Assembly: GCF_030013595.1 (NCBI RefSeq)
Contig: NZ_CP122768.1
Reading direction: 5' to 3' (one strand)
Source of the DNA: Escherichia coli
Lineage (GTDB): Bacteria > Pseudomonadota > Gammaproteobacteria > Enterobacterales > Enterobacteriaceae
DNA length: 64,000 nucleotides
Under the pieces are notes generated by a model. The model ran no database searches. It saw only the letters and a list, made by a program, of their open reading frames with translations, and was not told the DNA's origin. Shown in pieces: positions 1 to 14,190 of this stretch (position 1 is its first letter; each line of letters begins with the position of its first letter). A program made the position numbers and the translations under genes.

Positions 1-126
1 CAGCACACCTATTGCTGCCCACTGTGAGGGAGTGACTTTATCGAGCAGCTGTAAAAACCAGTAACCGGCACTACCTGCTGAGGTGCCATAGGCGACTCCA
101 GTTGTTAACTTATCCATGAATTTCAT
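1..126 (-). CDS. Phage holin (lambdoid S/EssD-like), N-terminal part only; ORF runs off window start
   Basis: Reverse-strand translation from ATG at 126: [42 protein letters not shown], holin-like; GAGGTG SD upstream. Confidence 0.6.
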
Positions 127-713
127 AACCCCACCTCGCAGACAAAGCGGGTGTAAATTGAGGGAATACAACGTATCGCAAAAAAGCAGAAACGTAACTG
201 ACTCCGAGTCAGTGAATAACTCAGGTATTGAGTTATCAGCTAATATCGAGACTCAAAAAATGGAAAAACCAGCTCGACGGCGGGTTTAAGCTGTGTGACG
301 AAGTAACCACTCTTAACAGCATAACCAATTTTTTACGTACGTAAACCACTGAATGATATTTATGAGAATGCTACCGAGTGTTCAAAACATCACCACAAAT
401 ACATAAGAAAACCTCAACAAATAACCAATAAATAATTTCCAGTGTTATTTTTAGCCGGTTTAAATTAAACAGACGAATTATAGAACCACCATAAATAACA
501 GCCATTAATATAAATTAGCTAATAGATTTATTTTTGTTCAAATAAGAGCCATAAATAGGTTTCGATAGAAAAAGTTCAGATAAAAATAGAGATCTACTTC
601 ACAAATTAAATGAGAAACTAAAACTTACATCTTGAAATAATCACATTGATTAGATGAATATTTATCGCGCAGTGACATCATTTTTTAATAATAGTTCAAA
701 AAAAGGGCTCACG

Positions 714-1811
714 ATGAAAAAATTAACAGTGGCAATTTCTGCTGTAGCTGCATCAGTACTGATGGCGATGTCTGCTCAGGCAGCTGAAATTTATAATAAA
801 GACAGTAACAAGCTGGATCTGTACGGGAAAGTTAATGCCAAGCACTACTTTTCCTCTAACGATGCAGATGATGGTGATACTACTTATGTTCGTCTGGGCT
901 TCAAAGGCGAAACCCAAATCAACGATCAGCTGACTGGTTTCGGTCAGTGGGAATATGAATTCAAAGGCAACCGCGCTGAATCTCAAGGTTCCTCCAAAGA
1001 CAAAACCCGTCTTGCATTTGCAGGCCTGAAATTCGGTGACTACGGCTCAATCGATTACGGCCGTAACTACGGTGTAGCATACGACATCGGTGCGTGGACT
1101 GACGTTCTGCCAGAATTCGGTGGCGATACCTGGACCCAAACAGATGTGTTCATGACTGGTCGCACCACTGGTGTTGCAACCTATCGTAACAACGACTTCT
1201 TTGGTCTGGTTGATGGTCTGAACTTTGCTGCTCAGTACCAAGGCAAAAACGATCGTAGCGATTTCGATAACTACACCGAAGGTAACGGTGATGGCTTCGG
1301 TTTCTCTGCTACCTATGAATACGAAGGATTCGGTATCGGTGCAACTTATGCGAAATCTGATCGTACCGACACTCAAGTTAATGCAGGGAAAGTTCTTCCT
1401 GAAGTATTTGCTTCCGGTAAAAATGCAGAAGTTTGGGCCGCAGGTCTGAAATATGACGCTAACAACATTTACCTGGCCACTACCTATTCTGAAACCCAGA
1501 ATATGACTGTATTTGCTGATCACTTCGTTGCTAATAAAGCTCAAAACTTCGAAGCTGTTGCACAATATCAGTTCGATTTCGGTCTGCGTCCGTCCGTTGC
1601 TTACCTGCAATCTAAAGGTAAGGATCTTGGAGTATGGGGCGATCAGGACTTAGTCAAATATGTTGATGTAGGTGCAACCTATTACTTCAACAAAAATATG
1701 TCTACTTTCGTTGATTACAAAATCAACCTGCTTGACAAAAATGACTTCACTAAAGCACTCGGTGTAAGCACTGATGACATCGTTGCTGTAGGTCTGGTTT
1801 ACCAGTTCTAA
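714..1811 (+). CDS. nmpC: Outer membrane porin NmpC (OmpD/OmpC family), prophage-encoded, intact 365 aa
   Basis: Signal peptide [23 protein letters not shown], porin motifs, C-terminal ...VGLVYQF; ORF track start at 654 is an upstream in-frame extension. Confidence 0.85.
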
Positions 1812-1948
1812 TCTGATTACGAAAAAGATATGTTGCGGGAGGCGTTGCCTCCCCAACATATAAGTGGCTCCCTCAAGCCACTTCCTTTAGGAGCACAACC
1901 TTGCTTCTAACTATATAAACCTTCTGTTATATATTACCCTTTATTTTT

Positions 1949-1973
1949 GGGGGCGTTGCAACGCCCCATTTTT
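1949..1973 (+). terminator. Rho-independent terminator downstream of nmpC
   Basis: Perfect hairpin ggggcgttgcaacgcccc followed by atttttaat. Confidence 0.55.
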
Positions 1974-2000
1974 AATAACTTTCAGTAAACAATTGGCATA

Positions 2001-2399
2001 TTAATTAGAGTTATTAACAACGATATCCATCTCTAACCGGATATCTAATGCCATTAACATCCCTTCAATTATGCCCTCAGCCTTCTGTAACCTTTTCCCG
2101 ATATAACCATCAGAGCAGCAATGCTTACCTGCCAGTGACATGAATGTCATACCGACTACATAATAATCTACTAATAAATCGTGCAAATCGCTGTTGTTCT
2201 TTTTCAGACGGGCCATGCACCCGCAAATAATCATCGCGTCATCGTCACAACATTGCGGGCGAGATTTTACTTTTGAAGGAATTAATCCCTTAAAACCGGC
2301 GGCAATGGACGACCAGGTCACATCTTCATGATTATTAGCCGCCCACGCTCCCCAACGTTCAAGAACCATCTGAATATCACGCATTAACTTTCTCCACAA
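2001..2399 (-). CDS. quuD: Late-gene antiterminator Q (QuuD-like)
   Basis: 132 aa; sequence matches my recall of DLP12 QuuD; sits directly upstream of the porin/lysis region as in K-12. Confidence 0.75.
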
Positions 2400-2401
2400 A
2401 A

Positions 2402-3397
2402 TCAGGCCAGCACACCAATCGCCAGTGCGCGATCGATAAAACGAAATATCAGCTCCAGCTGGGAGCCATACTTCTCTTCAAATGCCACGGTATCCGCATG
2501 CAGTTCGTCGTGGTGTTTTCTGCACAAAGGCAACACAAAAAGGTCATGCGCTTTTGTACCCATTCCACCCTGACCATGGCCTATCAGATGATGCGGATCA
2601 TCAGCTGGCTTTCCACAACATGCACACGGCTGTGTCTTAACCCAGCGCGTGTACTTTTCATTAACCCAGCGGCGACGTTTTGGGCGTAACATAAAAGACT
2701 CCGGCGACTCCGGATCCACTTTCAGCGCCAGCACCTTTTTCGCCTTATCCTGGATGATGCTGGTGGCAGGAACCGAAGGCACAAGGTCACTTTCCCGGGT
2801 AACAGACGGCACAACAGGCTTCGGTAATCTCAGTGCCTTACGGGCTGCACTTTCCGGTAAGGCATCCGCCAGATCATTACGAATCAGCCACCAGCACAGT
2901 TCCGGCATTGTCACAACGTGACTGTCATCAAAACCGAGATCCCGACGCACAACAGACAACACCCAGCGGGCACAGTTATCCGTTGCCATTGATTCCAGCC
3001 GTTCCGTGAACTGATCGCGCAGCTGGTTATCGCAGTGCCAGCACAGACGGATTGCACCCGGAGCGTGTCGCATTGTGGTCATGTTCTCGCTGTGCCAGTC
3101 GGAATGAGGCCACTGGCAGCCTTTTTCACGAAGTAACCAGCTTTCAAGACATTCCACGCCACCAGCACGACGGATCACTGCCTCATTGCGGAACACGGCC
3201 CGAACGGCAGGATCATCCGCCAGCGGTTGTGATGCCGCCGGAACGGCACCACTGGCGAAAGATGAATAACGCTCCGGCTCAGGCTCCAGCAGGACACGCC
3301 CCTGCATAAACAGGGGCATCAGCTCTGAACCTGGCCTGAACAATACGATCCCCATACGCGGGGCAATTTCAGGGGTCAGTAGTGCTCTCACGGTCAC
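2402..3397 (-). CDS. DUF968 family phage protein (YdfU-like) with C-terminal Cys/His HNH-like motif
   Basis: 331 aa; C-terminus CACCGKP...HHLIGHG...[10 protein letters not shown]; nin-region position. Confidence 0.55.
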
Positions 3398-3398
3398 C

Positions 3399-4241
3399 TC
3401 AATGAACGGTATCGAGCAGCTTTAACAGCTCAGGGAATCGGGATTCGAAGAAATGCGGCTGTGTCTCGCGCGGATTTGCGGGACTGGTGATGTTCTTGCC
3501 GAACATGCAACCTTTCGCTGTCAGCGACCAGAATTTTTTGATGTTGTTAATCGCTGTACGGCTGTATCGTTCGCGCTGCTCGACGATCCCCAGTTTCACC
3601 ATCTGGTGATATGCCTGATTAGCCGTCAGGCGTATACCATACTGTTTCAGCAGTGCACTCAGTGACAGTGTCGGGCGACTTGAGCCATCGTGTGCATCAG
3701 CAGGAGCATCAATGGCATAGCGCGGTGCCAGATTCGGTAAGCCAACAGCCTCCTGGAGTTTCTGACAGGCACCAAGCACTGAAGAGTTAGACAGGTTTAA
3801 CTCCCGGCGCATAAAGTCCAGCAGGATCACGCCAGCCTGCATCTTGTCAGCAGCCTGTCCGGATAATTTTTCCGGTGCGCTGGTTACCATATCGAAAGTA
3901 CGGATCACCTTCAGATGGAATGACGGGCTGATCCACATTGCATAGGCATACACCAGTTCCTTGCAGACATACGTTCCCCGTTCATTTCCCCCATGAATCA
4001 CACTCACCGGGTCAACACCCAAATTCTGGGTGTTGGTCAATTCATGAACAAGCTCAACAGTTTGTTGGCTGGAAAGAAACTTTCCCGGCTCCTTGGTTCT
4101 GGCATTTGCACCAGATGCTACTGCTGCGCGATGCAGATCGTTCAGGCTGTAACGCCCATAAGCATCACGACGAACTTCAATACCATCAATGACCATCAGA
4201 TTATTCATACTTCGTTTCTCCTCTTGATCAGGCGGCTGCAC
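3399..4241 (-). CDS. KilA-N domain protein / putative phage antirepressor
   Basis: 280 aa; N-terminal KilA-N-like segment MVIDGIEVRRDAYGRYSLNDLHRAA; start may be the internal Met at 4208. Confidence 0.5.
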   Translation of the reverse strand: MQPPDQEEKRSMNNLMVIDGIEVRRDAYGRYSLNDLHRAAVASGANARTKEPGKFLSSQQTVELVHELTNTQNLGVDPVSVIHGGNERGTYVCKELVYAYAMWISPSFHLKVIRTFDMVTSAPEKLSGQAADKMQAGVILLDFMRRELNLSNSSVLGACQKLQEAVGLPNLAPRYAIDAPADAHDGSSRPTLSLSALLKQYGIRLTANQAYHQMVKLGIVEQRERYSRTAINNIKKFWSLTAKGCMFGKNITSPANPRETQPHFFESRFPELLKLLDTVH

Positions 4242-4617
4242 CCGCCGTTTTCTCGTACTTACTGATAGTGATCTCGACCTTCCCTTTCGGGATAACCGGT
4301 CCCCACTCCACCAGCATTCTTTTCACCTGACTGTCGTCTTCCCACACACCCGCATGGGTCAGGGCGTCAAACAGCGCCTTGTTATAGTTGTCCAGATCGC
4401 GGATCCGGTTATCCGGAGGAAACAACACGATCTCCACTGAAGCAGGTGCCGACGTTGGTTTCGGCAGACGACGTAACTGCTCAACTATTGCTGCGCACGC
4501 CGCGCTCTGGAATTTGCGCCCCGCTGCGCTTATCAGACTCTTACCAGCAAACGCCCCTTTGTTGGGGTGTCGCCAGTACGTGTTCACGCTGGGCGGGAAA
4601 GGCAAGATCAGCTTCAT
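4228..4617 (-). CDS. rusA: Holliday junction resolvase RusA family
   Basis: 129 aa; ...RDLDNYNKALFDALTHAGVWEDDSQV... matches RusA catalytic-region pattern. Confidence 0.75.
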   Translation of the reverse strand: MKLILPFPPSVNTYWRHPNKGAFAGKSLISAAGRKFQSAACAAIVEQLRRLPKPTSAPASVEIVLFPPDNRIRDLDNYNKALFDALTHAGVWEDDSQVKRMLVEWGPVIPKGKVEITISKYEKTAGAAA

Positions 4618-4940
4618 ACTTTCAGGCCCCTCTCATGTAACCAGTGGGCTGCACGCAGCCTGGCGTTTTCCTCACCGGCAAGCAGTGCGCGGATAATCCC
4701 GACCGCCTCGCTGTCGTCGTCCTTCACCGCGGTATGAAGAGTTATCCCCCGGGCCACGCCACGCTTTATCGTGATGACGCCTTTTTTCTCCAGTGCGCGA
4801 AGATGCTCCACCGCTGCATTCACCGAACGGTATCCCAGCATGGTTGCCACCTCCTGATTGGTTGGCGGAAAGCCACGTTCTTGCTGGTAAGAAATCAGCA
4901 TATCCAGCACCTGCTGCTGGCATTGAGTTAACGTCGTCAT
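4614..4940 (-). CDS. LexA-type N-terminal DNA-binding domain protein, no peptidase domain
   Basis: 108 aa; LTQCQQQVLDMLISYQQERGFPPTNQEVATMLGYRSVNAAVEHLRALEKKGVI resembles the LexA winged-helix domain; 4-nt overlap with flanking genes. Confidence 0.5.
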   Translation of the reverse strand: MTTLTQCQQQVLDMLISYQQERGFPPTNQEVATMLGYRSVNAAVEHLRALEKKGVITIKRGVARGITLHTAVKDDDSEAVGIIRALLAGEENARLRAAHWLHERGLKV

Positions 4941-5590
4941 GCCGCCATCTCCCTGACCAGTTTTTCCGCCTGCTGGCGAACCTGCGCCAGAAAGGCCTCA
5001 CCACATGCCTCAAGTTCATCGCGCCCGATGTAGCTGATTGCCGGTCCCTTCCAGGTCTTGTCGAAAACAGCAATAGCACCAGCGAAGAAAGCGCCTGTCG
5101 GCACCTGCTTCTCGTCCTTCGGGATAAACCAGGCTGGCAGTTCAAAACCAATACGCCCGCGAATAAAAGCAATATGGTCTGCATCTTCCGGCCACCACAC
5201 TTCGCTGGTGGCAGCTTTGATCAGGAAAACATAGCGCCCGCCTTTATCACGCATGGCACTGGCATGCTTCATGATGTAACGCATGCCGGTGATGTATTGC
5301 CCCTCATGCTGACTGGCGCGGCTGTACGGGGGATTACCAAAGGCAGCACCTTTAAGCTCCGCAAGACGTTCTGACCAGTCATGCGCCAGCGCGTTGTCTT
5401 CCGCAGTGTAATACGCGGCGCATTTGGCGTTATCACCATCAGTAAACAGATCCAGAACAAACGGGCCAAACAGGGTGTTAATTCCCCAGAAAATGTTGTC
5501 CGGCGTGCGCCACTGATCGCCCACTTCCTTCAGTTCATGGGCTGGTTTGTTCCGCAGCTCCACCAGCGCCTGGCAATATTTATTACTCAT
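4937..5590 (-). CDS. Phage DNA N6-adenine methyltransferase (Dam-like)
   Basis: NPPY motif (GNPPYSR); start placed at Met giving TAATG coupling with the upstream gene; ORF track extends to 5623. Confidence 0.7.
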   Translation of the reverse strand: MSNKYCQALVELRNKPAHELKEVGDQWRTPDNIFWGINTLFGPFVLDLFTDGDNAKCAAYYTAEDNALAHDWSERLAELKGAAFGNPPYSRASQHEGQYITGMRYIMKHASAMRDKGGRYVFLIKAATSEVWWPEDADHIAFIRGRIGFELPAWFIPKDEKQVPTGAFFAGAIAVFDKTWKGPAISYIGRDELEACGEAFLAQVRQQAEKLVREMAA

Positions 5591-6084
5591 TAAGCCCCCA
5601 CGTAATTCCCTGACAGATACCACTCTTCACCCGATGCAGCGCGCTTGCTGCTTTTCCGTAAACACCGCTCACGACGCGCAAGAAAATTGTTTCGCTCTTG
5701 CTGGGAGTGGCTTTCACGGAATGCCGCCATCCACACCGTTGCAGCACGACGGTATAAGCCCCTGGACTCCAGTTCTTCCGCCTGGCGGGTCAGGCACAAA
5801 ATAACCCGGGGATCGTTAGTGCCGACATAGAAATTGCGCACAGGTCTGGATTCACGAACTGGTTGCGGTTCCGGCTCCTGCGGTATCTCAGTCAGCCGCG
5901 GGAAATGTCTGCGTGTATCCCCTTCACAACGGTGAGCCACACGCCCACTCTGACGTAACTTGCTTGCTGACTGCAGAACGCGCTGTCGTGAGTAACCTGC
6001 AAAAGCATCCGCAATGTCTCCGGAAGTACACCCCGGATGGGCTTCAATGAATTTCTGAACGTCATTCAAAAGACTCATGATCAC
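5590..6084 (-). CDS. Hypothetical phage protein in replication module
   Basis: 164 aa, translationally coupled to the replication gene upstream and the methyltransferase downstream. Confidence 0.45.
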   Translation of the reverse strand: MIMSLLNDVQKFIEAHPGCTSGDIADAFAGYSRQRVLQSASKLRQSGRVAHRCEGDTRRHFPRLTEIPQEPEPQPVRESRPVRNFYVGTNDPRVILCLTRQAEELESRGLYRRAATVWMAAFRESHSQQERNNFLARRERCLRKSSKRAASGEEWYLSGNYVGA

Positions 6085-7022
6085 CCCCTGAATCCTGCCG
6101 GGATCTGGCTGTAGTCCACGTTGTCGTAACTGGCTTTGAAGTACGGGTCTTCGCGTTTTTCGGTGTACGTGCTGACGGACGGCGATAAGCGCAGGGAAAG
6201 CTCATCCCATTTTTCCCGCAGCTTCGACGGGCTGAGCACGTTACGGCACCAGAACGGATCGCGACTGACGCGGCTGTACATCTCGCAGATTTGTTTATGA
6301 GTACGACCATCCTGCACACACATCAGGCGAATTTCGTTTGCCCAGGCTGTCCAGTTCGGTTCTTTGGGACGAACCACCTCGCCGTCACATTCGGCGGCAT
6401 GCTCGTACAGGGCGATGATTTTTTTCCAGAGCCACTGTGCGCAGGTCAAATCATCCTGCGTCCCCCACTGGCGCTTTTTAGGGCTGAATACAACCGCATC
6501 AGGATGGCGAGTTAAAAAATCCTGTTCAGCCGTCTGCGTGTCCGGTTGCGAAGAGTCCGGACGAGAAGGTTTTTTATCTGACGGATCATGTTTTGATTTT
6601 ACTGACGGATCCCCGCCAGATTCTGACGGGTGAAAACCCGCTTTTTTGCCAGATTTCGACGCATCAAATTTTGACGGGTCAGATTTTGATGCGTCAGATT
6701 TTGACGGGTCAGAATCTGACAGTTGAGAAAATGCCGCTGCCTGAAGCTTCGCAACGTTAAGCTGATAAACATTCGACGCATTGCGGTTACCCTGGCGACG
6801 CGCCTTACGCGTTAACCAGCCTTCTGCTTCCAGCCGTGCGATAGCCGTTCTGACGGTACTCATCCCCGCGCCAATCTGGCGGGCAATGGTTTCAATCGAT
6901 GGCCAGCACACACCTTCGTCATTACTGAAATCAGCCAGGCGGGCCATAATTGCCACGCTGGATAATTTCATGCCTGACGCTGCGCAACCATCCCATACAT
7001 AGCCGGTTAATTTAGTGCTCAT
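6081..7022 (-). CDS. Putative phage replication initiation protein (N-terminal wHTH, O-like role)
   Basis: 313 aa; HTH segment CWPSIETIARQIGAGMSTVRTAIARLEAEGWL; repetitive SDPSKSDASK linker encoded by internal iterons. Confidence 0.55.
   Translation of the reverse strand: MSTKLTGYVWDGCAASGMKLSSVAIMARLADFSNDEGVCWPSIETIARQIGAGMSTVRTAIARLEAEGWLTRKARRQGNRNASNVYQLNVAKLQAAAFSQLSDSDPSKSDASKSDPSKFDASKSGKKAGFHPSESGGDPSVKSKHDPSDKKPSRPDSSQPDTQTAEQDFLTRHPDAVVFSPKKRQWGTQDDLTCAQWLWKKIIALYEHAAECDGEVVRPKEPNWTAWANEIRLMCVQDGRTHKQICEMYSRVSRDPFWCRNVLSPSKLREKWDELSLRLSPSVSTYTEKREDPYFKASYDNVDYSQIPAGFRG
6575..6730. repeat. Iteron array (putative prophage ori) inside the replication gene
   Basis: About 8 tandem copies of a TGACGG(A/G)TC-like unit (tctgacggatc, actgacggatc, tctgacgggtg, ttgacgggtc x2, ttgatgcgtc) followed by an A/T-rich stretch. 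Confidence 0.55.
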
Positions 7023-7031
7023 GACCGACCT

Positions 7032-7370
7032 CTATTTCCCTGAATTTACGACGAAACTGTTCGAGCGGACTGAAGCACTCATGCTCATAGCCTTCGCGGA
7101 GGTAGATAACCCGTTGTGTTTCCGGTTCCCAACGAATGACTCTGACGGGCACTCCGTAGTGATCTTTGAACCAGCGGTTAACTTGTCGCAAAGGACTGTC
7201 TCCTTCTGCCGGTTGAAATCCCCCACAGCCCACTCTGCAAAGCTGTGGGTTACAATTTCCCTGTCACCTGGTACATTCACTGCATAGCAATATTCCACCT
7301 TCGCTTTTCCACCCGGTACAGGAAGCGCAATCAGTTGCGAGCGACGGTAGTGTGTTGTTAAACTGTTCAT
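7032..7370 (-). CDS. YmfM-like e14-type phage protein
   Basis: 112 aa; 4-nt overlap with the upstream CII-like gene; C-terminal half overlaps an alternative-frame ORF (7012..7233). Confidence 0.45.
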
Positions 7371-7936
7371 GCGTTAGTTTCTCCACAACCAGAAGCAATC
7401 GACGCCACGACGCCCGGAGCTGCACACTCGCGGGCGTCATTACTTTCTGAAATGCAAAAGATTTTGTAGACCAGTGCTGCATGCTCCTGCAGCTTCGAAA
7501 TTGAGAGATACAGCTCGTCGTTAATTGCTGTCTTCTCATGCGGTTCCACTACACCGTCTTCGATTGCTGAACGAATCTGTTTTGAATAACTGCCGATCTG
7601 TTCAATGACTTCCAGCAGACGCTGGTTAATATCGGCGTTGTCCACATCCTCGACGTCAGGAAGCGACACAAAGACGCCATTTGCAGACTGCGCCACAGCA
7701 TCAGCAATGAAGTGAGTGCCACCAGCACGCTGTAAAACCATTGCCCATCCCAGCGGGAAAATCTGATCGCCATCTGCACGAAGGCGGTTGAATAAAGCGT
7801 TTTCTGTTACATCGAGCCAGTCAGCCGCTTCAGCGTAACCACCCGGCAACGCCGCGATAGTTTTTCTGACAGCTTTCACGTACCACTCAGGCTGTTTTTC
7901 TATTTTCCAGTGATGCTTACCCACGATTAGCCTCAT
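7367..7936 (-). CDS. YmfL-like / CII-type phage regulatory protein
   Basis: 189 aa, directly downstream of cro in the rightward operon. Confidence 0.55.
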
Positions 7937-7967
7937 CGTTCTGTGGTTAAAAATTGAAAGTGTTCTG

Positions 7968-8168
7968 CTAATCTTTCGGATAGATATCCGGTCTTAAGTC
8001 AGATTTCGTAATTGCACCTGACGTGCATTGCTCAAGTTTTTTAGCCAGCACAAAACTGGCTTTTTTATAGCCATTGAAAACCAGCCGTAAGTAGCCAGGA
8101 GTTGAGCCAACTTTTCCGGCCAACTCGCCCTGCTGTTCTTTGGTTAAAGAGTCCCAATACGCTTTCAT
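7968..8168 (-). CDS. Cro-like repressor
   Basis: 66 aa MKAYWDSLTKEQQGELAGKVGSTPGYLRLVFNGYKKASF... with HTH; GGAG SD; divergent from cI; ORF track's 167 aa is an upstream extension. Confidence 0.65.
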   Translation of the reverse strand: MKAYWDSLTKEQQGELAGKVGSTPGYLRLVFNGYKKASFVLAKKLEQCTSGAITKSDLRPDIYPKD

Positions 8169-8222
8169 ACAATATGTACCTCCGGTGTACATATTACATG
8201 ATTGAAATGAACCTTCAAGACA

Positions 8223-8243
8223 CTTGTACCTTAACGGTACAAG
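8223..8243. promoter_or_regulatory. Putative OR operator palindrome between cro and cI
   Basis: cttgtacc-ttaa-cggtacaag inverted repeat; further TGTAC half-sites at 8175 and 8186. Confidence 0.45.
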
Positions 8244-8258
8244 GGTTTTAATTTCGTT

Positions 8259-8933
8259 ATGAAAACAATCCATGACATCCGGCGGTCTAACGCCCGAAAA
8301 CTGAGAGATGGTGTTGGAGGGAATTCTTCCTTTGCCACTATGATTGATCGCGAGCCAACCCAGACCAGCAGGTTTATGGGAGATGGTGCTACTAAAAATA
8401 TCGGTGACAGCATGGCACGACACATCGAAAAATGTTTCGACCTGCCTGTCGGATGGCTCGATCAAGAACACCAGACAACGAACATCACAAAAAAACCTGA
8501 TGTTTCAATCACTAATAAACAAATCACATTAGTCCCTGTCATATCATGGGTACAGGCCGGAGCATGGAAAGAAGTTGGATATTCTGAGGTTGATTTGAGC
8601 ACAGCAGAAACGTATCCCTGCCCTGTACCCTGTGGGGAAATGACTTATATCTTGCGGGTGATAGGTGATTCAATGATTGATGAGTACCGCCCGGGAGACA
8701 TGATTTTTGTCGATCCTGAAGTACCTGCCTGCCACGGTGACGACGTTATTGCATTGATGCACGATACAGGTGAAACCACCTTCAAAAGGTTGATAGAAGA
8801 TGGGACACAGCGTTATCTCAAAGCGTTAAACCCAAACTGGCCTGAGCCTTACATTAAGATCAACGGTAATTGCTCTATAATTGGAACTGTGATTTTCTCA
8901 GGAAAACCAAGAAGATACAAAATCAAAGCCTAA
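8259..8933 (+). CDS. CI-like prophage repressor (HTH plus S24 LexA-like peptidase), CohE-like
   Basis: 224 aa; C-terminal S24 region ...VIGDSMIDEYRPGDMIFVDPEV...; divergent from cro. Confidence 0.8.
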   Translation: MKTIHDIRRSNARKLRDGVGGNSSFATMIDREPTQTSRFMGDGATKNIGDSMARHIEKCFDLPVGWLDQEHQTTNITKKPDVSITNKQITLVPVISWVQAGAWKEVGYSEVDLSTAETYPCPVPCGEMTYILRVIGDSMIDEYRPGDMIFVDPEVPACHGDDVIALMHDTGETTFKRLIEDGTQRYLKALNPNWPEPYIKINGNCSIIGTVIFSGKPRRYKIKA

Positions 8934-8946
8934 TCAATGTTTATGA

Positions 8947-8968
8947 ACCTGCTTCGGCAGGTTTTTTT
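8947..8968 (+). terminator. Rho-independent terminator after the cI-like gene
   Basis: acctgc-ttcg-gcaggt hairpin followed by tttttt. Confidence 0.6.
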
Positions 8969-8972
8969 ATAC

Positions 8973-9000
8973 TTGACAATGTACCCACGAGATACATAAT
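8973..9000 (+). promoter_or_regulatory. Putative pL-like sigma70 promoter with operator repeats
   Basis: TTGACA (8973-8978), 16-bp spacer, CATAAT (8995-9000); direct repeats atgtacccacgaga / atgtacccaagaga share the TGTACC operator half-site. Confidence 0.45.
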
Positions 9001-9081
9001 GTACCCAAGAGAAACAACAAACAGGCAGGACGCCCACGAAGTAGCCGCCTGGGGCATATGAAGTCCAGGATGATTCGTTAG

Positions 9082-9110
9082 CAACAAAAAAGCGCCCTAC
9101 AGGACGCTTA
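9082..9110 (-). terminator. Rho-independent terminator for the minus-strand moron
   Basis: On the minus strand: agcgtcc-tgta-gggcgct hairpin followed by tttttgttg, 38 nt past the stop at 9148. Confidence 0.45.
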
Positions 9111-9147
9111 GCTCTTTAACAATCTGGATATCCACAACAGTAGTAAT

Positions 9148-9639
9148 CTACAGATTGCCGTTAAGTTTTCTGGACAACTCCTCAATGGATGGAGGCGATA
9201 CGTAATCCGGATTTTTATTCATCAGAAACTTATTTTCACAGTGGAGGCACCTGCTTTTATGAAAAAGCTCATCTTCGCTAACCGGGAATGGTTGAAGTAT
9301 CGATACTATCTTTTGTCCAAAACATTTTGGGCAAAGATGCATGGTTATGCTGCCACCGTTCACGATTACCTCCTTCGAGTATACAAAAGTACCCGACTCA
9401 AGTTGGTTAAGGATATAGCCTTCCGTCTGAGCCTCAAAGTTTTCGAATTCTGCAATTTTAGCTTTGAGAGAAGCATTTATTTCTTGATAAGAGCCCACCA
9501 GTTCAACGAGAGACACGCATTCGCGCTGAATAGACGCAAGCTTTGAGTTCAGCTCACCAATAGCCGCATTTACTTCAGCTTGAGTTTTTGCCTCGTTCAT
9601 TAGTTTTGCAATCTGGGCTGTTTCACGAATAGCCGTCAT
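9148..9639 (-). CDS. Hypothetical coiled-coil / C4 zinc-ribbon protein (moron between cI and early-left operon)
   Basis: 163 aa from Met at 9639; N-terminal coiled-coil-like region, C-terminal CPKC...(26)...CLHC; opposite to pL transcription; AT-rich; ORF track extends implausibly to 9927. Confidence 0.5.
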   Translation of the reverse strand: MTAIRETAQIAKLMNEAKTQAEVNAAIGELNSKLASIQRECVSLVELVGSYQEINASLKAKIAEFENFEAQTEGYILNQLESGTFVYSKEVIVNGGSITMHLCPKCFGQKIVSILQPFPVSEDELFHKSRCLHCENKFLMNKNPDYVSPPSIEELSRKLNGNL

Positions 9640-9949
9640 TGCTGCCGTTAATTCAGCGATCACATTGAATACTCTTATTGTTGTTGGGGATATCCAGATT
9701 AACCGAATCCTTGTTGTTGGGGAATAACCAGGTCCACCTCGCCTGATGTGGCTAAAAGCAGGCACATAACAGCTAAGTATTTTCAACCAGAGAGAATCCT
9801 TAGCGTTGTGGTGAATGCGGCTCAGCGCACGCGGGTTAAGGTTGAGGCTGACAGTCGACCTTCTGTGGATACCCACCCGCCTGGTGTGCAACCTTCGCCA
9901 GGCACCGGGAGGCACCCGGCACCACAACTTTATGCTGTGTGTAGTCCTG

Positions 9950-9996
9950 GCGGTACCAGTTTGTACCCTTGCTTCCGGCTGGTACCGTCCTTTTTT
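9950..9996 (+). terminator. Rho-independent terminator in GC-rich non-coding region
   Basis: cggtaccag ... ctggtaccg 9-bp stem followed by tcctttttt. Confidence 0.5.
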
Positions 9997-9997
9997 G

Positions 9998-10084
9998 CAA
10001 AACAGAGAAGAGCATCACCGGACGACGGGCTCATAACCCAATCCATCCGGGCGGCTGCCACCGCAGGTGTTCTTCTCTGTTTTG
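9998..10084. repeat. Long imperfect inverted repeat / RNA stem
   Basis: caaaacagagaagagca and tgttcttctctgttttg (17 bp, one mismatch) flanking ~53 bp of GC-rich sequence. Confidence 0.4.
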
Positions 10085-10133
10085 TGGAGAAACCAACCGA
10101 CCTTGCAGGGTCGATATGATGAGGAGCAGCAAA

Positions 10134-10496
10134 ATGGCTAGCGAACGCAGTACTGATGTGCAGGCATTTATCGGGGAGCTGGACGGCGGCGTATTTGAAA
10201 CCAAAATCGGCGCAGTTCTCAGTGAGGTCGCTTCCGGTGTGATGAACACGAAAACCAAAGGGAAGGTCTCACTCAATCTGGAAATCGAACCGTTTGATGA
10301 GAACCGTGTGAAAATCAAACACAAACTCTCATATGTTCGCCCAACTAACCGCGGGAAAATTTCCGAAGAAGACACCACCGAAACGCCGATGTATGTCAAT
10401 CGCGGTGGTCGCCTGACTATTCTGCAGGAAGACCAGGGACAATTACTGACTCTTGCCGGTGAACCTGACGGAAAACTCCGCGCAGCAGGTCGTTAA
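10134..10496 (+). CDS. YfdP-like prophage protein
   Basis: 120 aa; GAGGAG SD 7 nt upstream of ATG; first gene of the early-left operon, gene order as in CPS-53 yfdPQRST. Confidence 0.6.
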   Translation: MASERSTDVQAFIGELDGGVFETKIGAVLSEVASGVMNTKTKGKVSLNLEIEPFDENRVKIKHKLSYVRPTNRGKISEEDTTETPMYVNRGGRLTILQEDQGQLLTLAGEPDGKLRAAGR

Positions 10497-10561
10497 TATC
10501 GTTCGTAATAAACTGATTATTTATCTCATCACTGAATATCTTTATATAGTGAGGACTTATT

Positions 10562-11386
10562 ATGTCTCAGAACTTAGACGCAACCGCAATTAATCAAATC
10601 CATGCCCTTATTTCTGCTCAGAGTGTTAATGAAATTATCAGTAAGATTGGTGCCGATGCTGTGGCATTGCCTGAGAATTTCCGCATTCATGATCTGGAAA
10701 AATTTAATTTAAATCGCTTCCGTTTCCGTGGTGCACTTTCCACTGCCAGCATCGATGATTTTACCCGTTATTCTAAAGATCTTGCAGATGAAGGCACCCG
10801 CTGCTTTATCGATGCCGATAATATGCGTGCCGTCAGTGTGCTTAACCTGGGTACTATTGATGAGCCAGGTCACGCAGATAACACTGCCACTCTCAAACTG
10901 AAAAAGACAGCACCGTTCTCTGCTCTGTTGTCTGTTAACGGCGAGCGTAACTCCCAGAAGTCACTGGCAGAATGGATCGAAGACTGGGCCGACTACCTTG
11001 TGGGCTTTGATGCTAATGGTGACGCCATTCAAGCAACAAAAGCGGCTGCGGCAGTCCGTAAAATCACGATTGAAGCAAACCATACCGCTGATTTTGAAGA
11101 TAATGACTTCAGCGGCAAACGCTCCCTGATGGAGTCTGTCGAAGCGAAGACCAAAGACATTATGCCAGTGGCATTTGAATTTAAATGCGTTCCGTTTGAA
11201 GGTCTGAAAGAACGTCCGTTTAAATTACGCCTCAGCATTATCACTGGCGATCGTCCTGTACTGGTTCTGCGCATTATTCAGCTGGAAGCGGTGCAGGAAG
11301 AAATGGCTAACGAATTTCGTGATCTGCTTGTTGAGAAATTCAAAGACAGCAAAGTAGAAACCTTTATTGGTACTTTCACCGCCTGA
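10562..11386 (+). CDS. yfdQ: YfdQ family protein (DUF2303)
   Basis: 274 aa, same length and position as CPS-53 YfdQ; TGAGGA SD. Confidence 0.7.
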
Positions 11387-11397
11387 TTTCATTACTG

Positions 11398-11420
11398 CAA
11401 ATGCCCCTGCGGGGGCATTT
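11398..11420 (+). terminator. Stable stem-loop between yfdQ and yfdR (possible attenuator)
   Basis: aatgcccc-tgcg-ggggcatt perfect 8-bp stem; weak T tract. Confidence 0.35.
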
Positions 11421-11513
11421 ATGGAAACGTAATTAACTCAATAATCACCGGATGGTGAGGGCTTCCTTTTACCAGAATTCAGCGCGGTGCAGTGCATATA
11501 CGTGGAGAACAAA

Positions 11514-12050
11514 ATGTCATTTATTAAAACTTTTTCCGGGAAGCATTTTTATTATGACAAGATAAATAAAGACGACATCGATATTAACGATATCGCGGTT
11601 TCCCTTTCAAATATCTGTCGCTTTGCCGGTCATCTTTCGCACTTCTACAGCGTCGCCCAACATGCGGTTCTTTGCAGCCAGCTGGTGCCGCAGGAATTTG
11701 CTTTTGAAGCGTTAATGCATGATGCAACAGAAGCGTATTGCCAGGACATTCCCGCACCACTGAAACGCCTTCTTCCTGACTATAAACGGATGGAAGAAAA
11801 AATAGACGCCGTAATCCGTGAGAAATACGGGTTACCCCCAGTTATGAGTACACCCGTGAAATATGCCGATCTCATCATGCTGGCAACCGAACGCCGCGAT
11901 CTCGGGCTTGATGATGGCTCTTTCTGGCCTGTACTGGAAGGCATCCCGGCAACAGAGATGTTCAACGTGATTCCACTGGCACCGGGTCATGCCTACGGGA
12001 TGTTTATGGAACGTTTTAACGATTTATCGGAGTTACGCAAATGCGCATGA
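11514..12050 (+). CDS. yfdR: HD-domain 5'-deoxynucleotidase YfdR-like
   Basis: 178 aa from MSFIKTF; HD-family residues (...QHAVLCSQ..., ...HDATEAY...); ORF track start at 11487 is an upstream extension. Confidence 0.7.
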   Translation: MSFIKTFSGKHFYYDKINKDDIDINDIAVSLSNICRFAGHLSHFYSVAQHAVLCSQLVPQEFAFEALMHDATEAYCQDIPAPLKRLLPDYKRMEEKIDAVIREKYGLPPVMSTPVKYADLIMLATERRDLGLDDGSFWPVLEGIPATEMFNVIPLAPGHAYGMFMERFNDLSELRKCA

Positions 12051-12403
12051 ATGTTTTCGAAATGGAAGGGTTTCTTCGCGGGAAATGTGTACCGCGAGAT
12101 CTGAAAGTGAACGAAACAAATGCTGAGTACCTGTTACGTAAATTCGACGCGCTTGAAGCTAAATGTGCGGCACTGGAAAACAAAATAATACCAGTGTCAG
12201 CTGAACTGCCACCAGCAAATGAAAGTGTTCTGTTATTTGATGCTAACGGAGAAGGCTGGCTGATTGGCTGGCGTTCTCTCTGGTACACCTGGGGACAAAA
12301 AGAAACCGGAGAATGGCAGTGGACATTTCAGGTCGGGGACCTTGAAAACGTCAATATCACTCACTGGGCAGTAATGCCAAAAGCACCGGAGGCTGGAGCA
12401 TAA
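12041..12403 (+). CDS. yfdS: YfdS-like prophage protein (DUF551)
   Basis: 120 aa, follows yfdR as in CPS-53. Confidence 0.65.
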   Translation: MRMNVFEMEGFLRGKCVPRDLKVNETNAEYLLRKFDALEAKCAALENKIIPVSAELPPANESVLLFDANGEGWLIGWRSLWYTWGQKETGEWQWTFQVGDLENVNITHWAVMPKAPEAGA

Positions 12404-12708
12404 TGACCACATTTACCAATAAAGAACTGATTAAAGAAATCAAAGAACGAATCAGCAGCCTAGAGGTTCGAGACGATATTGAGCGCCGTGCTTATGAAAT
12501 CGCACTCGTATCTCTGGAAGTAGAGCCAGATGAACGCGAAGCCTATGAATTATTCATGGAAAAGCGTTTCGGTGACTTAGTAGATCGTCGGAGAGTAAAA
12601 AACGGCGATAACGAATACATGGCATGGGATATGACTCTCGGTTGGATCGTCTGGCAGCAACGAGCTGGTATCCATTTTTCAACAATGACACAGCAAGAGG
12701 TGAAATAA
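12403..12708 (+). CDS. yfdT: YfdT-like prophage protein
   Basis: 101 aa, coupled to yfdS (ATGA-type overlap). Confidence 0.65.
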   Translation: MTTFTNKELIKEIKERISSLEVRDDIERRAYEIALVSLEVEPDEREAYELFMEKRFGDLVDRRRVKNGDNEYMAWDMTLGWIVWQQRAGIHFSTMTQQEVK

Positions 12709-13079
12709 TGGAGCCATACAGCCTCACACTCGATGAGGCCTGTCAGTTTCTTAAGATATCCAGACCAACCGCCACCAACTGGATACGAACAGGCCGCCTA
12801 CAGGCAACACGTAAAGATCCAACCAAGCCAAAATCTCCTTACCTCACAACACGGCAAGCTTGCATTGCGGCGCTTCAGTCTCCGCTGCATACTGTCCAGG
12901 TGAGCGCGGGTGATGGCATAACAGAGGAAAGAAAATGTCACTCTTCCGCAGAAATGAAATATGGTATGCCTCGTATTCGCTCCCGGGCGGGAAACGAATT
13001 AAGGAATCTCTTGGCACAAAGGACAAGCGGCAAGCTCAGGAGTTGCACGACAAGCGAAAAGCAGAACTCTGGCGAGTAG
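12708..13079 (+). CDS. Putative excisionase (AlpA/Xis-like HTH); 3' end uncertain, frame overlaps int
   Basis: Starts TAATG-coupled to yfdT; N-terminal HTH-like segment [28 protein letters not shown]; frame stays open to 13079. Confidence 0.45.
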
Positions 13080-14098
13080 AAAAGCTAGGGGATTTACCTG
13101 ATGTCACTTTTGAAGAGGCCTGCCTAAGATGGCTTGAGGAAAAAGCTGATAAAAAATCTCTCGATTCAGATAAAAGCCGGATTGAGTTCTGGCTTGAACA
13201 TTTTGAGGGTATAAGGCTTAAAGATATCTCGGAGGCAAAGATTTACTCTGCTGTAAGCAGAATGCATAACAGAAAGACGAAAGAAATATGGAAACAGAAA
13301 GTTCAGGCCGCCATCAGGAAAGGTAAAGAACCGCCTGTTTATGAACCAAAGCCAGTATCAACTCAGACAAAGGCAAAGCATCTTGCCATGATAAAGGCCA
13401 TTCTCCGTGCTGCAGAACGCGACTGGAAGTGGCTGGAAAAAGCGCCTGTCATCAAGATACCAGCGGTCAGAAACAAGCGAGTCAGATGGCTGGAAAAGGA
13501 GGAAGCAAAACGCCTTATTGATGAGTGCCCCGAACCACTGAAATCTGTCGTCAAGTTTGCGCTGGCAACTGGTCTGAGAAAGTCGAACATCATAAATCTG
13601 GAATGGCAACAAATCGACATGCAGCGACGAGTTGCCTGGGTGAATCCAGAAGAGAGCAAATCAAACCGCGCCATTGGTGTGGCGCTGAACGATACCGCCT
13701 GTAAAGTGTTGCGTGATCAAATAGGCAAGCATCACAAATGGGTGTTTGTACATACCAAGGCGGCTAAGCGAGCAGATGGAACATCAACGCCTGCGGTCAG
13801 GAAGATGCGCATCGACAGCAAGACATCATGGCTATCAGCTTGTCGTCGTGCAGGAATTGAAGATTTCCGTTTCCATGACCTCAGACACACCTGGGCAAGC
13901 TGGCTGATCCAGTCAGGCGTCCCATTATCTGTGCTTCAGGAAATGGGCGGATGGGAGTCCATAGAAATGGTTCGTAGGTATGCTCACCTTGCGCCTAATC
14001 ATTTGACAGAGCATGCAAGGAAAATAGACGACATTTTTGGTGATAATGTCCCAAATATGTCCCACTGTGGAATTATGGAGGATATAAAGAAGGCGTAA
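12935..14098 (+). CDS. intD: Tyrosine integrase (IntD-like), adjacent to argU
   Basis: 387 aa; C-terminal catalytic region ...[17 protein letters not shown]...VRRYAHL; ends 16 bp from the tRNA 3' end. Confidence 0.85.
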
Positions 14099-14113
14099 CT
14101 GATTGAATTGTAA

Positions 14114-14190
14114 TGGCGCGCCCTGCAGGATTCGAACCTGCGGCCCACGACTTAGAAGGTCGTTGCTCTATCCAACTGAGCTAAGGGCGC
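14114..14190 (-). tRNA. argU: tRNA-Arg (anticodon UCU), argU
   Basis: Reverse complement GCGCCCTTAGCTCAGTTGGATAGAGCAACGACCTTCTAAGTCGTGGGCCGCAGGTTCGAATCCTGCAGGGCGCGCCA, 77 nt, cloverleaf-compatible. Confidence 0.95.

Follow-up and report, generated by a model that had tools for sequence, protein, structure and literature searches.

A candidate replication origin within the O-like initiator gene of a PhiR29/SfIV-type lambdoid prophage of Escherichia coli

The 64,000-nucleotide stretch of Escherichia coli contig NZ_CP122768.1 (assembly GCF_030013595.1) analysed here, referred to below as the window, opens within a prophage that runs off the window start and has its integrase end near 14.1 kb; window positions 1-14138 were collinear with positions 1-14138 of phage PhiR29_1 at 99.7% identity. 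On its minus strand this prophage carries an open reading frame (ORF) at 6081-7022, labelled in RefSeq as helix-turn-helix domain-containing protein and matched across its full length by PHROG 391, 'replication initiation O-like' (E = 4e-135). The subject of this work is a cluster of short repeats inside this initiator gene, which a preliminary description, made by inspection of the sequence, had taken for a putative prophage origin of replication.

That description counted about eight tandem units of the form TGACGG(A/G)TC. With at most one mismatch, TGACGGRTC was found in six copies in 6579-6710 and in 25 copies on both strands of the whole 64 kb. As the window-wide total was only 25 and no higher than in shuffled sequence, the cluster lies far beyond chance (by our own estimate ~0.05 copies are expected per stretch of this size). 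The cluster was thus real, but only four or five units were truly tandem at 15-nt spacing (6648-6719); in 6650-6713 Tandem Repeats Finder counted 4.3 copies with a period of 15 nt, and dispersed units were found at 6615-6626 and 6572-6611. The repeats, read in the minus-strand ORF, encode SDPSKSDASKSDPSKFDASKS and then HPSES, DPSVKS and DPSDK. The gene-sense units TCT GAC CCG TCA AAA and TCT GAC GCA TCA AAA correspond to SDPSK and SDASK, and HPSES, DPSVKS and DPSDK to the dispersed copies; the repetitive linker announced earlier for the helix-turn-helix replication gene was thereby borne out. The array proper (6615-6719) occupies codons 102-136, between an N-terminal domain (N-domain, amino acids (aa) 1-98) and a C-terminal domain (C-domain, aa 160-280).

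The register of the repeats was examined in homologous genes. The comparison set comprised 80 loci from one-genome-per-species contigs, the prophage copy of E. coli O104:H4 and three loci of class C (classes are described below); from it were drawn 54 genes with the same N-domain family, representing more than 25 genera. Repeats were present in all 54 and are therefore not peculiar to this copy; the preliminary description had named confinement to this copy as fatal to its reading. Throughout these homologues the conserved element was a 12-bp dyad, TCAAAATCTGAC in gene sense, of the form TCA-N5-TGA and recurring with a 15-bp period. A weight matrix built from 209 units of 44 genes from other genera, with the window excluded, reads nnn TCA AAA TCT GAC; its positions 4-14 carried 0.9-1.8 bits each, and the first triplet carried 0.3-0.8 bits. 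The unit proposed earlier, TGACGG(A/G)TC, is the complement of GAC-nnn-TCA and runs from the last part of one core across the variable triplet into the first part of the following one. It was therefore out of register and straddled two dyads, its middle triplet GG(A/G) being precisely the part that varies across homologues. A further candidate, TGAC-NN-GTCA, was ruled out as the real site since it is centred on the variable triplet (0.3-0.8 bits); it also failed at the isolated site 6615-6626 and at the first array sites, where the required flanking half is absent.

Scanned with this matrix, the window displayed five sites of at least 14 bits, all located at 6615-6719, the best score elsewhere in the 64 kb being 13.4 bits; the dyad sites scored on both strands. 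A degenerate fifth member in phase with the array and a weaker seventh site are listed in Table 1 with the others. The equivalent of the isolated site 6615-6626 in classes A and C was YCAGAATCTGG at the aligned position. Nor did the units counted earlier form one kind of repeat: besides the dyad array they include the TGACGG(A/G)TC copies at 6579-6587 and 6603-6611, which are part of a different, class-independent element, the conserved block described below.

The number of 15-nt units was polymorphic in 15-nt steps among nearly identical genes (97-99% identity), with 15 nt less in strain A15 and 15 and 45 nt more in others. Initiator homologues of 274-323 aa were encountered at 90-99% identity, and a Klebsiella homologue (P0047) displayed about ten units.

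Codon usage differed sharply along the gene. Relative synonymous codon entropy at conserved amino acids was 0.81 in the N-domain, 0.85 in the C-domain and 0.21 in the linker; N-domain and linker differed with p = 1e-9 (Mann-Whitney, 51 genes), and with p = 4e-11 when the 44 class A genes were considered and the window was left out. Serine was encoded by TCA in 45/45, 44/44 and 48/49 genes at three linker positions, while Asp138 was encoded by GAT in 51/51, Pro139 by CCG in 48/51 and Val141 by GTA in 49/51 genes; the N-domains of the same genes shared just 65-81% nucleotide identity. With linker codons nearly frozen and the N-domain saturated, purifying selection must have acted on the DNA of the linker and not merely on its peptide. 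The AlphaFold2 model assigned aa 103-159 a confidence (predicted local distance difference test, pLDDT) below 50, so that the repeats are predicted to encode a disordered linker, and the protein itself would then give little reason for such conservation. Applied to the known origin of lambda, the same synonymous-site test had no power, as the 80 lambda-type O genes available on viral contigs were all 99-100% identical.

The diversity of N-domains and repeats allowed identification of three classes. Class A, which includes this window and most homologues, displays the N-domain helix STVRT and the core TCAAAATCTGAC. Class B (O104:H4 prophage, Edwardsiella, Mixta and Morganella) combines the helix STVK, TTVS or NTVT with the core TCAAATATTGA, and class C (Trabulsiella, Klebsiella, Rahnella and E. 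coli) the helix GRSTVI with the core GTYCAGAAWCTGAAC. Helix class and dyad core went together without a single exception in the 54 genes. The amino acids encoded by a given core were less constant: TCAAATATTGA of class B is read as SNID in E. coli but as SNIE in Morganella, where the flanks differ too (VDPSN versus GSNIE units), and YCAGAAWCTGAAC of class C encodes RPETE or RSESE. In the natural recombinants P0037 and P0021 the C-domains had been exchanged, each N-domain remaining with its own repeat type. Judging from these sequences, such covariation is the pattern expected of an initiator and its iterons.

Next to the array in gene direction, all three classes share a conserved block laid out as GATCCGTCAGTA, N12 and GATCCGTCAGAT. 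It contains two direct repeats, GATCCGTCAGTAAAATC (6595-6611) and GATCCGTCAGATAAAAAA (6570-6587) in gene sense, which were spaced by 24 nt in 49 of the 54 genes. Every position of GATCCGTCAGTA carried 1.5-2.0 bits (maximum 2.0) over the 54 genes and all three classes, and GATC was retained by all 54 genes in the first repeat and by 48 of the 54 in the second. Together with the second GATCC 24 nt downstream, GATCCGTCAGTA provided the most conserved nucleotides of the entire initiator gene (6570-6611). The A/T-rich stretch that had been placed after the array was found here, at 6564-6603, with 30% G+C; this was the lowest 40-nt value in the gene, yet it represents only the 3.6th percentile of the 64-kb window, and the stretch overlaps the last two of the originally counted copies instead of following the array. 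No convincing fit emerged when the block was compared, by eye and not by computation, with the consensus sequences of DnaA boxes, IHF sites and the oriC 13-mer. In the BLASTP alignment with lambda O it stands opposite the peptide encoded in lambda by the A/T-rich region that directly follows the four iterons, and its sequence and position suggest an unwinding or helicase-entry region. The prophage has a Dam methylase gene of its own, located two genes downstream of the initiator.

In phage lambda, ori lies within gene O and consists of four 19-bp iterons and an A/T-rich region; the iterons are bound by O to form the O-some, and P then recruits DnaB. The initiator studied here resembled lambda O in its C-domain, with BLASTP returning E = 3e-26 and 31% identity over a 216-column alignment and tblastn 39% identity between aa 166-277 and lambda-type O genes. 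Nothing was aligned before residue 70, residues 70-165 were aligned weakly, and the lambda O N-domain family gave no Pfam match in the initiator. As its N-domain is not of lambda type, the protein is best described as a chimeric O-like initiator and not as an orthologue of lambda O. The arrangement at the DNA level was nevertheless collinear, and in this respect the likeness to lambda ori proposed in the preliminary description was supported: in both cases the origin or putative origin is inside the initiator gene, in the part coding for the linker between N- and C-domain, and in gene direction repeated sites with internal dyad symmetry come before an A/T-rich block, here a modest one, and this before the homologous C-domain. 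The differences were equally clear. The N-domain belongs to Pfam HTH_36; the sites are 12-bp TCA-N5-TGA dyads with a 15-bp period, whereas the 19-bp lambda iterons start ~20-24 bp apart; two invariant GATCCGTCAG repeats are found in the A/T-rich block, which is weaker than that of lambda; and no P gene follows the initiator, which ends in IPAGFRG and not in the lambda-type tail that accompanies P.

Lambdoid origins placed within the initiator gene are assigned to phages lambda, phi80, 82, P22 and L. Besides lambda, gene 18 of P22 and gene 18 of phage L carry such iterons, those of P22 being accepted and those of phage L inferred (PMC8022706). The phage L repeats are six imprecise 11-bp copies known by sequence inspection only (PMC8022706), the same level of evidence as that of the preliminary description here. 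The initiators of P22 and phage L are, like the present one, distantly related to lambda O and carry family-specific repeats inside the coding region (PMC8022706). They differ in the sequence of the repeats (TGTCCAACGGA in phage L), and those phages encode a DnaB-type helicase, gp12, beside gene 18, whereas the module described here encodes none. In iteron plasmids of the RepA, pi, RepE and TrfA type (Rep_3) a winged-helix initiator binds direct repeats placed beside an A/T-rich unwinding element, which is the likely mode of action here too. Plasmid iterons are usually 17-22 bp long with a period of ~22 bp and lie outside the rep gene. The sites described here are, by contrast, dyads inside the gene, and the initiator gave no Pfam match to Rep_3, the RP-C family reaching 17.2 bits and remaining below its cut-off of 24.4.

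The structural model was in agreement with this division of the protein. HTH_36 covered aa 23-70, and residues 1-98 were modelled as helices with a two-strand wing (mean pLDDT of 65-90 in 10-residue blocks). Foldseek retrieved MarR-like winged-helix proteins, all weakly (E > 0.001), and a sequence search of the PDB gave weak MarR matches to the N-domain only. For the C-domain, means of 10-residue blocks were mostly 88-97, with 76 at aa 161-170 and 211-220; the isolated C-domain matched no Pfam family. A second segment with pLDDT below 50 was located close to the C-terminus, at aa 283-298.

Codon freezing, covariation of core and N-domain and collinearity with lambda all support the reading of this region as an origin. 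We consider it probable, at about 80%, that a lambdoid prophage of the PhiR29/SfIV/SfII/CPS-53 type has its replication origin here, within the segment of its own O-like initiator gene that codes for the linker. From the sequence comparisons we infer the following course of events. The N-terminal winged-helix domain, probably as a dimer, would bind five to seven 12-bp dyads of consensus TCAAAATCTGAC, four or five of them 15 bp apart at 6648-6719 and one isolated at 6615-6626. The resulting nucleoprotein complex would destabilise the adjoining A/T-rich conserved block (6561-6614), at the position of the lambda unwinding region, and the lambda-O-like C-domain with its IPAGFRG tail would bring in the host DnaB helicase. 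Recruitment would presumably proceed via the host DnaC loader, as no lambda P gene is present.

Several points weigh against this assignment. Close homologues P0015-P0017 have lost most of the 15-bp units. The N-domain adjoins the repeats, so that co-inheritance of helix class and core would be expected even if the two were not functionally coupled. The A/T-rich stretch is modest, with 70% A+T over 40 nt, the lambda region being much richer. Searches with Pfam and PHROG and a survey of neighbouring ORFs detected no helicase or helicase-loader gene after the initiator, and the loading step is therefore conjectural. In 88% of the homologues the antisense frame stayed open over 50 codons or more, and in 53% the +1 sense frame did, so that an overlapping ORF might be a source of the synonymous constraint. 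Finally, neither an annotation nor a published description of an origin was found for this HTH_36-type initiator family: the SfIV paper (PMC3851460) is silent on the origin, and literature searches on yfdO/CPS-53, e14/ymfL and PhiR29 turned up nothing of relevance.

Among other explanations, the one that survives best, improbable as it remains, assigns the array a purely regulatory role: with the initiator or some other protein of the phage as its ligand, it would serve autorepression, copy control by handcuffing, or incompatibility or exclusion, the origin being located elsewhere. Selection, dyad symmetry and covariation indicate a protein-binding array and do not by themselves imply unwinding, and the weakness of the A/T-rich block would also suit this explanation. 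The array is however collinear with lambda ori, its host gene encodes a homologue of the lambda O C-domain, and the class-independent block stands exactly at the place of the lambda unwinding region. The matrix scan moreover uncovered no second cluster of this motif in the 64 kb, a result that concerns this motif and not other iteron-like clusters of the prophage, for which no search was made.

A second explanation, which we regard as somewhat less probable still, is restricted to the conserved block, taken as a junction for the recombination of modules. Crossovers joining N-domain and repeats to different C-domains do fall just downstream of the block (P0037, P0021 and the many C-domain types). 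Recombination alone would impose no purifying selection, though, whereas GATCCGTCAGTA retained 1.5-2.0 bits throughout in 54 genes with immediately upstream sequence that had diverged, and the position again corresponds to the lambda unwinding region.

It is very unlikely that the repeats are no more than a slippage-prone, low-complexity protein linker, functionless as DNA, whose units resemble each other through concerted evolution and recent duplication. The variation in unit number among genes of 97-99% identity, mentioned above, is what such a linker would display, as is the predicted disorder of the peptide. Concerted evolution homogenises repeats within a lineage, but it cannot keep one 12-mer, third positions included, across more than 25 genera with saturated synonymous sites in the N-domain; the only freely varying codon is the middle one, and the residues encoded by one and the same DNA core change from host to host. 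Least probable of all is an overlapping reading frame, a structured RNA or a single-stranded DNA element as the source of the nucleotide constraint: the strand did fold better than shuffled sequence (z = -4.6) and alternative frames were open as stated, but these frames are open because the repeat unit contains no stop codon in them, the plus-strand ORF of the window starts at TTG and would encode (QILTx)n, no Rfam family reached its threshold (the best match, 30.7 bits against a gathering score of 97, was to a microRNA and was due to the dyads), the half-sites are conserved in sequence and not by compensatory pairs, and each class has the dyad typical of dimeric winged-helix sites.

Table 1. 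Features of the initiator gene, its putative origin and the gene that follows it, in window coordinates
Feature	Position	Strand	Description
O-like replication initiator gene	6081..7022	-	313 aa ORF; Pfam HTH_36, PHROG 391
N-terminal winged-helix DNA-binding domain, presumed iteron reader	6729..7022	-	aa 1-98; Pfam HTH_36, GntR, MarR-type
Putative iteron 1	6708..6719		TCAGATTCTGAC in gene sense, dyad; 18.7 / 19.7 bits on the two strands
Putative iteron 2	6693..6704		TCAAAATCTGAC; 21.1 bits, the maximum possible
Putative iteron 3	6678..6689		TCAAAATCTGAC; 21.1 bits
Putative iteron 4	6663..6674		TCAAAATTTGAT; 16.4 / 17.3 bits on the two strands
Putative iteron 5, degenerate, in phase with the 15-bp array	6648..6659		TCGAAATCTGGC; 11.2 bits, a score not unique in the window
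Putative iteron 6, isolated	6615..6626		TCAGAATCTGGC; 14.3 / 15.0 bits
Site 7, weaker	6585..6596		TCAAAACATGAT; 10.2 bits
Disordered linker (predicted), containing the entire cis element	6546..6716	-	aa 103-159; pLDDT < 50
Class-independent conserved block, putative unwinding/helicase-entry region	6561..6614		two direct repeats; GATC at 6584 and 6608
Most A/T-rich 40 nt of the gene	6564..6603		30% G+C
C-terminal domain, homologue of the lambda O C-domain	6183..6545	-	aa 160-280; tblastn, BLASTP, AlphaFold2
C-terminal tail IPAGFRG, nearly invariant	6084..6104	-	P308, G310, F311 and R312 at least 90% conserved
yfdN-like gene, PerC family, at the position of lambda P	5590..6084	-	Pfam PerC, E = 2e-9; PHROG 1324 'transcriptional activator'

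The gene found at the position of lambda P, a yfdN homologue, is not a helicase loader by sequence. Among homologues the type of initiator tail predicted the next gene. A lambda-like tail (ending in W-E-x-x-L) was followed by Phage_lambda_P in 11/11 genome-contig loci, as well as in L089, and the IPxGFRG tail was followed by lambda P in 0/32. The genes encountered after the IPxGFRG tail were PerC-like in ten cases, Dam in eight, DnaC-like in three, DUF977 in three and DUF1627 in one, the remaining seven showing no match to the reference families used. Judged from this distribution, the IPxGFRG tail may be a loader-selecting peptide, and phages with this module probably use a DnaC-type route, here conjecturally that of host DnaC-DnaB. 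Rather more tentatively, and as a possibility to which we give less than even credit, the family may represent a distinct origin architecture: class-specific TCA-N5-TGA dyads repeated every 15 bp; a near-invariant, class-independent element consisting of GATCCGTCAGTA, 12 nt and GATCCRTCAGAT, which has two Dam sites 24 nt apart and could be dedicated to a host factor or to helicase entry, with Dam and SeqA as possible readers; and an O-only module with a C-domain of lambda O type, whose IPxGFRG tail would engage DnaC-type loaders, of host or phage, instead of lambda P.

The end of the initiator gene also contained a mosaic joint (5590-6156): its last 76 nt, together with yfdN, were 96-97% identical to phages SfV and mEp460 and to Stx2 phages, the initiators of which are otherwise unrelated over N-domain, linker and C-domain. 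The SfV initiator, orf39, has linker repeats of its own, GGSAxxS.

Upstream ORFs, in gene sense, were cro-like, cII-like (Phage_CP76), ymfM-like and DUF4222, and those downstream were the PerC/yfdN-like gene followed by Dam, LexA-like and RusA-like genes; the names cro, LexA-like and RusA-like were read from ORF translations and from the annotation of PhiR29_1. Two of the upstream minus-strand ORFs overlap in different frames, DUF4222 at 7012-7233 (Pfam E = 3e-19) and the ymfM-like ORF at 7032-7370 (PHROG 1170, E = 6e-70). RefSeq annotates the former and phage records the latter (window 7012-7370); either the two genes truly overlap by ~200 nt, or one of the families rests on mis-called ORFs.

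The replication module shared 99.8% identity with its counterpart in the deposited phage PhiR29_1, the O proteins being 100% identical, and was displayed by phages SfIV and SfII at 98% DNA identity. The isolated phage SfIV is functional and converts serotype (PMC3851460). In view of these identities the module here is probably still functional, as the preliminary description had suggested. The array was found in 1,959 out of 5,426 complete E. coli genomes and also occurs in serotype-converting Shigella phages. Two E. coli copies were incomplete: that of CPS-53 in K-12 (L001) has kept the array and the C-domain and lost the N-domain, and that of strain S43 (L003) consists of an N-domain only, fused to a KilA-N remnant beside ymfL, ymfT and ymfK. 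As far as sequence can tell, neither could act as an autonomous replicon. Enterobacterial-type copies of the gene were also encountered on contigs labelled Collinsella, Lachnospiraceae, Chryseobacterium or Bacillota (L005, L010, L030, L056 and L084, from genomes or metagenome-assembled genomes), of which L005 and L010 were near-identical to the E. coli O104:H4 copy; these are likely due to contamination or mis-binning.

Iterons inside an initiator gene are the textbook arrangement of lambda, common and ordinary, and apparently undescribed for this initiator family; the conceptual reach of finding them in another family is accordingly limited. With the exact cis element at hand, that is, its core, its register and the conserved block, it becomes possible to tell which prophage copies could still replicate. 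The same element is useful for the design of compatible vectors and for reading the local amplification that follows prophage induction. The freezing of synonymous sites in a disordered linker, finally, offers an easy means of detecting origins that lie within other initiator genes.

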